This document shows positions 58,211 to 60,440 of a DNA stretch of 64,000 bases, piece after piece. Every line of letters begins with the position of its first letter. Within the stretch, counting starts at the first letter, position 1. Both the position numbers and the translations under genes were made by a program. Source of the DNA: Escherichia phage vB_EcoM_YN3; sequence record PV763136.1. One strand, written 5' to 3'. The notes below the pieces were generated by a model. The model saw nothing but the letters and a program-made list of their open reading frames with translations, searched no databases and was not told the DNA's origin.

Positions 58211-59758
58211 TTAGATAAAACGCTTGAACATAGAAGGTGATGAGATTGATGGAATCACACAAGGAAGTGCTACCTCCTCTTTCTCCAGGAAATTAATCGC
58301 AGAAGCTACACAGTCGGCCCAGTCGTCTTTTCTGTTAAATGTTGATCTTTCCCCGTTGAATTTTTCAAGTTCAGTCAGAAATGCTTCCAGAGTATCAGGA
58401 TGGAAACTGGATTTTACAATTCTCACCATTCCTTGTTGGGCAAGATTGGCAAAAGGTGAGAACCTTGTCAGTTTAGATTTGTTGGAAGGCATTGGGTCTT
58501 CTTCAACCCTGAACCCTTCGGCGAGCAAGGATCTGGAGGATGTTAAGAACTCACTCTTACCTGCCTGCCCTGGGTCCACAGAGAAGACGATTATGCAATC
58601 ATCACCATCGAACTGCGCCTGTTTCCTGATGATCACATCTCGTTCACCAGCCTTTTTACAGAACTTGCCTTCTAGACCTGTGGAATACCTCCCGTCATCC
58701 ACGTTCTCAGGACAATAATCACCGGACAGGTAATAAAAGCCGTCGCTATCTTTACTTACCTTAACACTGGCGGTAAAGTCAGGAAATTTATTACCGGAAG
58801 TTCTCTCGGTTCCTGCCTTATCCCATGCCCTGCAAGATACTGATCCAAGGGGTACTCTATCGGCATCACGAAGGAAAGATCTTTGAAAATAGTTTGCGCC
58901 CTCAGGCTTTGCAAACCAGTTACCATGAAGAAGCTGAGCTTTTTCCAGTTCCGGCAGACCTTCAAGGAAAGCAAGGTATTCTGGGTTGTCTCTTAAGCAA
59001 ACAGGATTATCGAATATTGTTGCGCCTATAAACGAGAATGACAACGGTCTTGGCTTGATCTCCACACCAAGTCCGTTAACCGTGGTGTATTTCTCTATCA
59101 ACTCTTCTTTAGAGTCCCCCCAGATAAATTCACCGTCGCGTCGGATAAAATATCTTTTCTTACCGCATTTCTCCGGATCTGGATACCCTTCATCGTCCAA
59201 CCACCATCTAACCAGTTTGGCAAGCATGTGTTCTGAATCGGGGTTACAGCTGATAACCATTCTTGATGGATACTTTGACTGAGATCGCAGACGAGACATC
59301 AGGTAGTCTATCTGCTCCCATTCGAACTGCGTGCCCTCATCGAAGCAAACCATGGTGTACTCAAGCCCCTGATGGTTAAGCTTATCTTGTACATACTCCA
59401 TATGGCAGTATTTTACAACAGCTCCCTTTTTGCTTCTATCCCACTTACCAGTGTTCGGATCAAACCGTGGAAAAATGAACTTATGATCCTTCTCTCTGAA
59501 CTTTGGCTTAATGTTTTCAGGCAGATCACTATAAATAGCTACTGCTTTAGGCCATAGTCCACCCTCACCTTCTAACTGTGGGGTTGTTCTTCGGAACATA
59601 ACCACAGAGCTGTGGGGGTCATCAATAATTTTAAGTGGCATCAACTGCAAGAGGAACGACTTGCCAGACCCTGCGGCACCGCCGATTACCAAGATATCTG
59701 CATCGTTTTCGAGGATCATCTTCTGCTTTTCAGAACACGGTCCGTAAATCTTAGACAT
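58211..59758 (-). CDS. terL: terminase large subunit
   Basis: 515 aa; Walker A ILVIGGAAGSGKSF near the N-terminus; acidic residues consistent with a C-terminal nuclease domain. Confidence 0.7.
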   Translation of the reverse strand: MSKIYGPCSEKQKMILENDADILVIGGAAGSGKSFLLQLMPLKIIDDPHSSVVMFRRTTPQLEGEGGLWPKAVAIYSDLPENIKPKFREKDHKFIFPRFDPNTGKWDRSKKGAVVKYCHMEYVQDKLNHQGLEYTMVCFDEGTQFEWEQIDYLMSRLRSQSKYPSRMVISCNPDSEHMLAKLVRWWLDDEGYPDPEKCGKKRYFIRRDGEFIWGDSKEELIEKYTTVNGLGVEIKPRPLSFSFIGATIFDNPVCLRDNPEYLAFLEGLPELEKAQLLHGNWFAKPEGANYFQRSFLRDADRVPLGSVSCRAWDKAGTERTSGNKFPDFTASVKVSKDSDGFYYLSGDYCPENVDDGRYSTGLEGKFCKKAGERDVIIRKQAQFDGDDCIIVFSVDPGQAGKSEFLTSSRSLLAEGFRVEEDPMPSNKSKLTRFSPFANLAQQGMVRIVKSSFHPDTLEAFLTELEKFNGERSTFNRKDDWADCVASAINFLEKEEVALPCVIPSISSPSMFKRFI

Positions 59759-60045
59759 TAACCTCTCTCCTTTGGAAACAGTGTTCTAATATAGTCTTGC
59801 AAAATGATCAATTTAGCTCTATCATTGCTACAAGACAGATTATTATCCCTCATAATGCCAGAATTCACTGCATCTGGCGCACCTTTCTTCAAAGGCATAG
59901 CTTTAGCAGGTGGTTTCATGGCACCTTCTGGGGGTTTAACAATCAACCTTCCTACATCCGGAGGGTCAATCTTGTATTCTCTCTCAACGCTGGTTGCACA
60001 CCCACATAATAACAAGCACGCAATAAACAGTGTGGCAACTCTCAT
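59758..60045 (-). CDS. o-spanin (outer-membrane lipoprotein, Rz1-like)
   Basis: 95 aa; lipoprotein-type signal MRVATLFIACLLLCGC; Pro-rich mature part; 4-nt overlap with the upstream i-spanin-like gene. Confidence 0.5.
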   Translation of the reverse strand: MRVATLFIACLLLCGCATSVEREYKIDPPDVGRLIVKPPEGAMKPPAKAMPLKKGAPDAVNSGIMRDNNLSCSNDRAKLIILQDYIRTLFPKERG

Positions 60046-60440
60046 CGATCCTCCTGATTGATACTCTCATTATAAATATCTATAAGCTGATCAGGAAGTG
60101 TTGACTTCTTACCTTCAGGTGATTGGAGGTAGATAATCTGCTTTTCTCTACCTGCCCTCTCAGCTATATTTAATTTATCATGCAGATCAGAAAGGGATTT
60201 TTCAAGGTTTTTAACCTCCTCTGCGTGGCCCATTTTAATTTTGTCGGCCTGCTTTTGTTGCTGATCAAGGATCCGTTCCCACTTCAACTCTGTTGCTAAC
60301 ACACCTTCTTGGTAGGCTTCATTAAGCTTAGAGTTAAACCAATACACGGCCCCAAGATAAGCTGTACCTATAGCCGCTGCAAAAACTAAACCTTTTATGA
60401 TCCCTCTATACCTACTCAGCCATGTTAAACCTGAAATCAT
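60042..60440 (-). CDS. i-spanin (Rz-like)
   Basis: 132 aa; N-terminal TM segment GLVFAAAIGTAYLGAVYWF followed by charged coiled-coil sequence. Confidence 0.5.
   Translation of the reverse strand: MISGLTWLSRYRGIIKGLVFAAAIGTAYLGAVYWFNSKLNEAYQEGVLATELKWERILDQQQKQADKIKMGHAEEVKNLEKSLSDLHDKLNIAERAGREKQIIYLQSPEGKKSTLPDQLIDIYNESINQEDR

Follow-up and report, generated by a model that had tools for sequence, protein, structure and literature searches.

The 64,000-nucleotide stretch of the Escherichia phage vB_EcoM_YN3 genome considered in this work (PV763136.1; hereafter, the window) belongs to a Vequintavirus, that is, an rV5-like myovirus, a group of phages used therapeutically. Directly upstream of the gene coding for the terminase large subunit (terL), it harbors two short, overlapping open reading frames, and this locus raises two questions: whether the two products represent an i-spanin/o-spanin pair and, if so, with which wall-degrading enzyme and which holin they would act. 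All the window features whose coordinates are given below are located on the minus strand, unless otherwise stated.

The first gene (60042-60440), the homologue of rV5 gp67, has an ATG start preceded by a GGAG Shine-Dalgarno sequence and codes for 132 residues, none of which is a cysteine. The protein possesses one hydrophobic segment at residues 14-32 (mean Kyte-Doolittle hydropathy, KD, 1.8), which is preceded by Arg10, Arg12, and Lys16, falls within a transmembrane domain (TMD) spanning approximately residues 14-37, and is conserved in the alignment of the homologues (alignment A3). The resulting layout is that of a single N-terminal TMD with N-in/C-out topology, followed by a periplasmic C-terminal portion in which a linker connects a long helical domain to a short helix at the C-terminal end. 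A single-sequence AF2 model, of moderate confidence (mean pLDDT 76, pTM 0.33), places a helix at residues 5-103, a disordered stretch at 104-114, and a second helix at 115-127, and is consistent with a mainly alpha-helical periplasmic domain with a linker. The homologues from other Vequintavirinae genera share 28-34% identity with this sequence; those of phages isim, Murica, and LL12 are labelled i-spanin.

The second gene (59758-60045), the homologue of rV5 gp66, is preceded by an AGGAGG Shine-Dalgarno sequence and codes for a 95-residue protein. The lipobox sought in its N-terminal region is recognizable by inspection (L13-C14-G15|C16, with alanine at position +2; MRVATLFIACLLLCG|C16-A17) and agrees with the PROSITE lipoprotein pattern. 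In the alignment of the homologues from four genera, including this one (alignment A2), G15-C16 is invariant and position +2 is occupied by A, E, A, and R; a lipobox cysteine lacking Asp at +2 corresponds to sorting to the outer membrane. The mature part is proline-rich and contains one periplasmic cysteine, C72, at 71% of the mature chain. At least one periplasmic cysteine, available for a homotypic disulfide, has been reported for 96% of two-component spanin systems; C72 provides it here, and the aligned spanin homologues of three other genera have none. In its layout, the 95-residue product thus corresponds to an o-spanin lipoprotein of the outer membrane, predicted from its sequence to be lipidated at C16.

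Both proteins match Rz-like spanin families, the former phrog_4297 (3e-47) and the latter phrog_1267 (2e-22), and the 2018 spanin census SpaninDB includes "rv5" i- and o-spanin families with separated architecture (Kongari et al. 2018, PMC6139136). The invariance of G15-C16 in the homologues of three other genera, together with the spanin profile matches of both ORFs, places the pattern beyond chance. The slot directly upstream of terL often holds the small terminase, and the spanin function in the rV5 group is itself a prediction; the two ORFs might, in principle, code for packaging accessories (e.g., a small terminase substitute) or for unrelated envelope proteins preceding terL by chance. 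This is very improbable, since the pairing of a TMD protein with a lipobox lipoprotein cannot be reconciled with a TerS, which is cytoplasmic and binds DNA, both ORFs match spanin PHROGs, the lipobox is invariant across genera, and spanins adjoining the terminase have also been reported for SP6 and VP4. The encoded signals and the homology to other predicted spanins support the assignment of the two ORFs to an i-/o-spanin pair.

The organization of the locus agrees with that described in the earlier note. The two spanin genes are adjacent on one strand, with the i-spanin gene first, and overlap by 4 nt (60042-60045, ATGA; gatcgATGAgag), while the o-spanin stop codon and the terL start codon share 1 nt, the last A of TAA being the A of ATG (ggtTAATGtct). 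The terL gene (58211-59758) is intron-less, and its 515-residue product matches phrog_979 (2e-208), Terminase_6N (6e-20), and Terminase_6C. Through these junctions, the spanin genes are translationally coupled both mutually and with terL; they head a unit of head and tail genes that, judging from its gene content, would be late. The order tRNAs, i-spanin, o-spanin, terL, and portal is maintained in Mydovirus, Henunavirus, and Seunavirus. Upstream, a terminator-like hairpin followed by a U6 tract (60459-60490; CCCCGUUAGCU-GUAU-AGCUGCGGGG, then UUUUUU) is located 18 nt from the i-spanin ATG and parts the spanin-terL operon from an 89-residue ORF and the tRNA cluster; the 70-nt stretch around it has a minimum free energy of -20.7 kcal/mol (z = -1.9). 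In neither this operon nor the hydrolase operon described below was a sigma-70 promoter detected in the interval from the upstream terminator to the start codon, the counts being near the shuffle expectation. Plus-strand ORFs at 59797-60061, as well as a hydrophobic antisense ORF at 1800-2021, were dismissed because they lie inside well-supported minus-strand genes.

The locus is identical (100%) to that of Escherichia phage BP9 and shares more than 98% nucleotide identity with those of rV5, Murica, and isim, where the spanins are already annotated; the same i-/o-spanin annotation is present in many GenBank records. Moreover, Buttimer et al. 2020 (PMC7344957) described the same layout, with spanins beside terL, no cassette, and a SleB-like hydrolase that is exported and conserved. 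The pair of spanins, its position on the terminase side, the exported hydrolase, and the scattering of the lysis genes are thus already known from GenBank and from papers published between 2013 and 2020, and the locus represents a real, ordinary, and known rV5-type spanin pair.

The hydrolase in question, the homologue of rV5 gp2, is coded for by a gene with a GTG start (1897-2397, 166 residues) located 57.4 kb from the spanin genes, in line with the 57 kb reported earlier. It matches the Pfam family Hydrolase_2 (PF07486, SleB-like; 2e-19) with 70.4 bits against a gathering cut-off of 27, and SleB in the PDB (4F55, E=2.5e-6), its YREARGD being the counterpart of the SleB motif YGESRGE. The Glu of the latter motif aligns with E47, which is invariant in alignment A1 and presumably corresponds to the catalytic residue of SleB-type enzymes. 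The N-terminus (MKIKIFAIILSAFLSLPVVA|AP) includes an h-region of about 15 residues (IFAIILSAFLSLPVV; KD 2.29) rich in Ile, Leu, and Phe, and ends in a V-x-A cleavage motif conserved across four genera, in which Cys30 and Cys42 are also invariant (alignment A1). It is therefore predicted to be a classical cleavable Sec signal peptide; of the "signal/SAR-like" N-terminus proposed previously, the export signal stands, whereas a SAR domain was rejected on account of the composition of the h-region and of the conserved cleavage motif.

The hydrolase gene is flanked by an acidic 126-residue ORF and by rIIA (1-1900, first 633 codons, its frame open to the left edge of the window; annotated in Murica and rV5), whose ATG overlaps the hydrolase TGA at 1900-1898 (ATGA). 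A strong intrinsic terminator (2418-2433; CCCCGCTTCGGCGGGG plus a T-rich tail), annotated in Murica too, is located 20 nt upstream of the GTG; this, together with the GTG start itself, suggests a low rather than a late expression. In Murica the protein is named "cell wall hydrolase, SleB-like", while its RefSeq label is "endolysin", and the homologue of phage CB7 has been reported to be toxic when expressed in E. coli; the label and the toxicity leave room for a role of the enzyme in lysis. When ten proteins of the baseplate, tail, and tape measure were compared with Pfam, no other muralytic domain emerged in the window.

The statement that this hydrolase is the only recognizable muralytic enzyme holds for the window, but not for the genome. 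BP9 (52937-53407), Murica (70326-70796), rV5 (gp89), and LL12 (gp90) harbor a gene for a 156-residue lysozyme of the lambda R type which, placed according to these relatives, would lie about 6.6 kb past the right end of the window and about 10 kb from the spanin genes. The protein aligns over its full length with PDB 1AM7 (E=3e-57) and has neither an N-terminal extension nor a signal sequence. Its gene was retrieved from 114 phage records, nearly all rV5-like, with at least 80% of the gene in 91 of them; about 20 related genomes match just its first 42 nt, which indicates that the locus is variable. The lambda-R-type enzyme is the lysin or endolysin of the rV5 and LL12 papers. Furthermore, LysECP26, which according to its authors is 98% identical to the rV5 enzyme and 62% identical to lambda R, has been purified and is active. 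The adjacent genes code for a DNA ligase and for a 68-residue protein with one hydrophobic segment (phrog_4641).

This has consequences for the lysis route. The earlier note had reasoned from the secretion of the endolysin to a pinholin or a holin-independent route; this conclusion is not warranted, since the lambda-R-type lysozyme of the genome is cytoplasmic, and endolysins that are soluble in the cytoplasm depend on a holin that forms holes. The 64-kb window excluded the real endolysin, and this led to the wrong inference; the useful outcome of the present analysis is thus a correction, in that an unusual lysis route need not be invoked. As for a canonical holin-endolysin cassette elsewhere in the genome, a canonical endolysin is indeed there, but a recognizable holin adjoins neither its gene nor that of the hydrolase.

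We then considered the genes that might code for the holin. As previously stated, none is next to the spanins or to the hydrolase: no membrane-protein gene was found adjoining either locus. Two small ORFs had been put forward instead, and both exist. The first (22261-22575), the homologue of rV5 gp31, codes for a 104-residue membrane protein with one N-terminal TMD (KD 1.91), which has an acidic N-terminal end and a basic C-terminal flank and is followed by a charged helical tail. It belongs to phrog_5345 (function unknown), has no significant Pfam match, and has homologues in 223 phage records, those of other Vequintavirinae genera being 22-34% identical; its gene is never called a holin in the 60 records sampled from a total of 116, and Table S3 of the rV5 study contains no mass spectrometry evidence for gp31. 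The second (20850-21116), the homologue of rV5 gp29, is located between two tail-fiber genes and codes for an 88-residue protein, weakly hydrophobic and below the threshold adopted for a TMD in the hydropathy scan (KD 1.6), which matches phrog_1322 ("membrane protein", 3e-32); the same table lists no TMD for gp29, and none of 60 records sampled out of 115 calls the gene a holin. Neither of the two has a Pfam holin match. Lying among tail-fiber genes, without holin homology or a holin label in the sampled records, the 104-residue protein is a weak holin candidate and the 88-residue one a poor candidate. The gene for the former is located directly downstream of a gp38-like tail-fiber assembly gene. 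In T4, the holin gene t lies just downstream of the tail-fiber assembly gene (gp38), and by analogy of position the 104-residue protein could be the missing holin.

The 2013 rV5 paper proposed gp129 as a putative holin by means of TMHMM and Phobius alone; the gp129-like gene is not called a holin in any of 60 sampled records. Probing the PHROGs with five candidates (the 88- and 104-residue proteins, Murica117, which is the gp129 homologue, the 68-residue neighbor of the endolysin, and 4MG_271) did not retrieve any holin family, all five falling in PHROGs of unknown function or in generic "membrane protein" ones. In 4MG (Seunavirus) and KB57 (Mydovirus), the gene immediately following that of the hydrolase codes for a small protein having two hydrophobic segments, and a small dual-TMD gene in the same position has been reported for Certrevirus; the Mydo genome announcement does not mention lysis. 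A relocated copy of the 4MG/KB57 gene was sought by tblastn in the window and in the remaining part of the Murica genome, and no match had an E-value below 0.08.

These data suggest, with a probability of roughly 0.85, that the phage has an rV5-like two-component spanin, that its main endolysin is the cytoplasmic lambda-R-type lysozyme with the SleB-like hydrolase as an accessory, and that the layout is dispersed. Inferring from the paradigms of lambda (Rz/Rz1) and T4 (PseT.3/PseT.2), the two spanins would bind each other by their C-termini, and the complex would thread the peptidoglycan mesh and span the periplasm. After degradation of the wall, most likely by the lambda-R-type lysozyme, presumably released by a holin, the spanins would collapse, fusing the inner and outer membranes and completing lysis. 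The SleB-like hydrolase is a separate enzyme, predicted to be Sec-exported and probably disulfide-bonded, and belongs to a different transcription unit. The dispersal of the lysis functions claimed in the earlier note is thus real, and published: with spanins, lysozyme, and SleB-like hydrolase placed apart, the lysis genes occupy three of the four transcription units, as in T4.

The role of the SleB-like hydrolase can be read in other ways. It might itself be the endolysin, lysis proceeding through a pinholin (membrane depolarization) or without a holin: besides its RefSeq name and the toxicity of the CB7 homologue, its signal peptide and catalytic Glu are conserved, the enzyme belongs to the core of every Vequintavirinae genus, whereas the second muralytic enzyme varies by genus, and the dual-hydrophobic small protein follows it in the phages mentioned above. 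We consider this improbable, because the genome has a canonical cytoplasmic endolysin whose close homologue is active, the small dual-TMD gene is missing in this genus, where the hydrolase stop codon overlaps the rIIA start and tblastn yields no homologue in the window and the remaining Murica genome, and the gene, besides the expression signals described above, sits in a unit with rIIA, rIIB, helicase, and polymerase.

A somewhat less doubtful, though still tentative, possibility is that the hydrolase acts beside the lysozyme, either as a periplasmic enzyme kept restrained until the holin-driven loss of the proton-motive force activates it, which would back up or speed the lysozyme, or in a role outside lysis, such as wall remodeling or superinfection control with rII. 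The retention of two unrelated muralytic enzymes in every genus, the two invariant cysteines of the mature domain, which would suit folding in the periplasm, the tight coupling to rIIA, and the occurrence of Hydrolase_2 genes in T5-like and other large virulent phages having their own endolysins all point in this direction. On the other hand, no regulatory partner of the enzyme was identified here; furthermore, Bacillus SleB-type enzymes act on the muramic-lactam cortex, and an activity on E. coli murein is putative.

It is also conceivable, though unlikely, that Vequintavirinae run two parallel wall-degrading modules, a replaceable cytoplasmic endolysin and an ancestral core module, the latter consisting of the Sec-exported SleB-like hydrolase and a tiny dual-TMD, pinholin-like protein directly upstream of rIIA-rIIB. 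According to this idea, the core module would be reduced in this genus, which would have lost the small partner, and the hydrolase gene, having a GTG start and a terminator upstream, would have become translationally coupled to rIIA. An exported wall-degrading enzyme would thereby be connected with the membrane functions of rII, of which little is understood.

The preferred reading, that of a cytoplasmic endolysin with an exported accessory enzyme, can be compared with known systems. Oenococcus phage fOg44, whose Lys44 has a Sec signal, and phages with SAR endolysins (e.g., P1 Lyz) likewise export a muralytic enzyme, which in their case is the endolysin itself. Here, the genome also codes for a cytoplasmic endolysin, and the N-terminus of the exported enzyme is predicted to be a cleavable signal of strong hydrophobicity and not a Gly/Ala-rich SAR domain. 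As for the S-R-Rz/Rz1 cassette of lambda, the endolysin of the rV5 group is genuinely homologous to lambda R and the spanin mechanism is presumably the same, whereas here there is no cassette, no S-like holin was found, and the spanin genes are not embedded one in the other and are unrelated in sequence to Rz/Rz1. The T4 system is similar in several respects: PseT.3 and PseT.2 touch at their stop and start codons alone and lie far from the endolysin and holin genes, the i-spanin has no cysteine, the genome carries rIIA and rIIB, and the lysis genes e, t, rI, and rII are dispersed. Unlike here, the T4 spanin genes are not beside the terminase, their products show no detectable sequence similarity to those of this phage, and the T4 o-spanin needs two periplasmic cysteines, whereas the one described here has C72 only. 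Within the same subfamily, Certrevirus shows the same layout, with the SleB-like CB7_83, provided with a signal peptide, and the spanins CB7_252/253 beside terL (PMC7344957). It differs in that the hydrolase gene is followed by that of CB7_82, a 65-residue class II holin candidate, where this genus has rIIA, and in that its second muralytic enzyme is an M15 peptidase, that of this genus being the lambda-R-type lysozyme. Finally, rV5 gp67 and gp66 represent the same genes, with the same lengths (132 and 95 residues), the same ATGA junction, and the same position upstream of terL; the terL genes of rV5 and LL12 contain an intron, whereas the one described here is intron-less, and there is no other difference of substance from rV5.

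The lysis genes are dispersed in this genome, as an earlier note had observed; this correct part is already published, and part of the interpretation placed on it is wrong because the edge of the window cut off the endolysin gene. Database entries for isim, nimi, Murica, LL12, and the BASEL phages, as well as that of rV5 in RefSeq, already name the same two genes beside the terminase gene i-spanin and o-spanin. A spanin census lists 'rv5' families for both subunits under the separated architecture and gives the rule that a lone Cys is found closer to the i/o interface than to the outer membrane (Kongari et al. 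2018, PMC6139136). Spanin genes next to terL and outside any lysis cassette have been reported as well, as have the conservation of a signal-peptide-bearing SleB-like hydrolase throughout all genera of the Vequintavirinae and its toxicity on expression; T5-like phages carry an endolysin of their own (Buttimer et al., PMC7344957).

The i-spanin (60042-60440, minus strand; 132 aa; Shine-Dalgarno GGAG) and o-spanin (59758-60045, minus strand; 95 aa; Shine-Dalgarno AGGAGG) ORFs share the sequence ATGA, which confirms the 4-nt overlap previously claimed, and both match the 'Rz-like spanin' profile (3e-47 and 2e-22, respectively). The i-spanin has a single hydrophobic segment close to the N-terminus, preceded by basic residues; in its single-sequence AlphaFold model, a long helix (residues 5-103) is joined through a disordered linker to a short one at the C-terminus. 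The o-spanin begins with a lipoprotein signal (MRVATLFIACLLLCG/C16-A17), the feature on which the earlier note had made its reading depend; the G-C is invariant in the Mydovirus, Henunavirus, and Seunavirus homologues, and none of these four sequences has an Asp at +2. C72, the sole periplasmic Cys of the o-spanin, lies 71% along the mature chain, which fits the rule on lone cysteines. Neither subunit of the Mydo, pEp_SNUABM_01, and GAP31 pairs has a periplasmic Cys (o-spanin alignment A2 and i-spanin alignment A3); thus, these three sister-genus pairs represent the rare (~4%) cysteine-free class of two-component spanins.

The o-spanin TAA has one base in common with the ATG of terL (58211-59758, minus strand; 515 aa), which is one uninterrupted ORF, whereas that of rV5 is in three pieces with an HNH endonuclease and that of LL12 is joined from two. 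On the other side, a terminator-like hairpin followed by U6 (60490-60459, minus strand) lies 18 nt upstream of the i-spanin ATG, and further upstream there are an 89-aa ORF (about 60546-60815) and six tRNA genes. The order tRNAs, i-spanin, o-spanin, terL, portal also holds in three further genera. The i-spanin start has a 4-nt overlap with a hypothetical ORF (~475-485 aa) in Mydovirus, Henunavirus, and Seunavirus (1044-2501 of locus L012, 1017-2474 of L013, and 1029-2453 of L014), while the window has at this place just the 89-aa ORF and the hairpin. At 61107-61205 (minus strand), ARAGORN also called a tRNA-like gene of 99 nt whose anticodon has four bases (atcc); related records label it 'tRNA-OTHER' or, inconsistently, tRNA-Lys. 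No call was made in the window for the tRNA-Tyr that annotations of relatives place between tRNA-Ser and tRNA-Arg.

The 4-kb stretch around the spanin locus (57500-61500) matches Escherichia phage BP9 (PP488543.1; BP9 position = 124008-x for window position x, strand reversed) at 100% identity, and rV5, Murica, isim, LL12, and numerous further Vequintavirus genomes at 98.5-99%. Since identity to BP9 is slightly lower in other parts of the window, the genome is a mosaic relative of that phage and need not be BP9 itself; the drop to 96.6% at 20850-21116, in the tail-fibre region, where no database record exceeds 98.5% identity, suggests that the host-range module is mosaic. Between 16 and 23 GenBank MG0656xx records titled 'Campylobacter phage' (host C. 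jejuni) are 98-100% identical to E. coli rV5-like phages and are probably mislabelled or contaminant genomes.

The earlier note had regarded the SleB-like protein as the only recognisable muralytic enzyme. This is true inside the window, where ten tail and baseplate proteins scanned showed no muralytic domain, but not for the genome, given that relatives encode a 156-aa lysozyme adjoining the DNA ligase gene (Murica 70326-70796; BP9 52937-53407; LL12 gp90; rV5 gp89). In window numbering this gene would fall at about 70.6-71.1 kb, 6.6 kb past the right edge. The protein can be aligned over its whole length with lambda lysozyme (1AM7, E=3e-57) and lacks an N-terminal extension, which indicates a soluble, cytoplasmic enzyme. 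In the rV5 paper, gp89 was called 'an obvious lysin', the LL12 announcement named the lambda-R-type lysozyme the endolysin, and purified LysECP26 from the rV5-like phage ECP26, with a reported 98% identity to the rV5 enzyme, lysed Gram-negative cells with a permeabilised outer membrane. The gene was recovered from 114 phage records, almost all of them rV5-like, and 91 of these contain at least 80% of it. Because a cytoplasmic endolysin, as found in BP9, Murica, LL12, and rV5, needs a hole-forming holin, the pinholin or holin-independent route previously deduced from a secreted endolysin does not follow.

In ~20 related genomes (e.g., ECML-10 and 'Campylobacter phage A13b') only 42 nt at the start of the lysozyme gene are matched, and most other genomes show 90-95% identity at this locus versus about 98% elsewhere; the locus is a variable spot and may be swapped between genomes. 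Directly downstream, and outside the window, lies a gene for a conserved 68-aa acidic protein (Murica 70860-71066, i.e., 8861-9067 of locus L003; BP9 52667-52873), whose single N-terminal hydrophobic segment scores very high (KD 2.74) and which may carry a lipobox (MAA/C14). It belongs to phrog_4641 (unknown function) and is the only membrane-targeted product encoded adjacent to the endolysin.

The SleB-like hydrolase gene (1897-2397, minus strand), its overlap with the rIIA start, and the two small tail-fibre-region ORFs are all placed as previously reported. The Hydrolase_2 domain scores 70 bits (cut-off, 27), and E47, which we take to be the catalytic residue, is invariant among the aligned homologues (A1) and lines up with the Glu of the SleB motif YGESRGE. 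The N-terminus (MKIK, a core of 15 residues rich in Ile, Leu, and Phe and containing a Pro, then V-V-A/A) is a textbook Sec signal. The V-x-A motif and two Cys of the mature part are invariant in the homologues of Seunavirus, Certrevirus, and a Stephanstirmvirinae phage, which argues for a cleaved periplasmic enzyme rather than a SAR anchor. The gene starts with GTG, 20 nt past a strong terminator, its stop overlaps rIIA, and the rV5 paper places it in transcription unit 10-1-238-164 with rIIA, rIIB, helicases, and DNA polymerase. Homologous domains occur, among others, in T5-like and Pakpunavirus-type phages. The hydrolase is taken to be an accessory exported enzyme.

As for the holin, the LL12 annotators identified none, and in the rV5 paper gp129 (78 aa, two TMDs, basic C-terminus) was put forward solely on TMHMM and Phobius output. 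Its Murica homologue maps outside the window; gp129 homologues are restricted to this genus and unusually divergent (55-100% identity), and none of 60 records sampled labels the gene a holin. Between the candidates of the earlier note, the 88-aa protein (20850-21116; gp29) is weakly hydrophobic, and the 104-aa one (22261-22575; gp31) combines a single N-terminal TMD with a charged helical tail and has homologues in several other Vequintavirinae genera (22-34% identity) and no flag in virion mass spectrometry of rV5. The gp31 gene directly follows a gp38-like tail-fibre assembly gene, just as T4 t sits after gene 38, and it thus remains a weak holin candidate; it could equally well serve in fibre assembly or mask the receptor.

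In sister genera, the hydrolase has a small neighbour. In 4MG (Seunavirus) the order is SleB-like gene, 4MG_271 (57 aa, two hydrophobic segments, basic C-terminus; phrog_24442, unknown function; 3536-3709 of locus L011), rIIA, rIIB, helicase; Klebsiella phage KB57 (Mydovirus) has the first two genes of this order, with an unannotated 51-aa homologue (NC_028659.1 142823-142978, plus strand; 2036-2191 of L015). A 65-aa dual-TMD class II holin candidate occupies the same place in CB7 (Buttimer et al., PMC7344957). Sister genera thus do possess an exported hydrolase with a pinholin-like partner, which lends the earlier idea some comparative footing; in the window's genus this gene is missing after the hydrolase, and no homologue was found elsewhere in the genome. 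Holin families matched neither gp29 nor gp31 (PHROGs, Pfam), nor the gp129 homologue, the 68-aa endolysin neighbour, or 4MG_271 (PHROGs).

To the observed gene structures, localisation signals, homologies, and genomic layout, the steps of lysis can be added by inference from lambda and T4: at a set time, a holin would permeabilise the inner membrane, the murein would then be degraded by the lambda-R-type enzyme, and the i-/o-spanin bridge, released from the murein mesh, would fuse both membranes.
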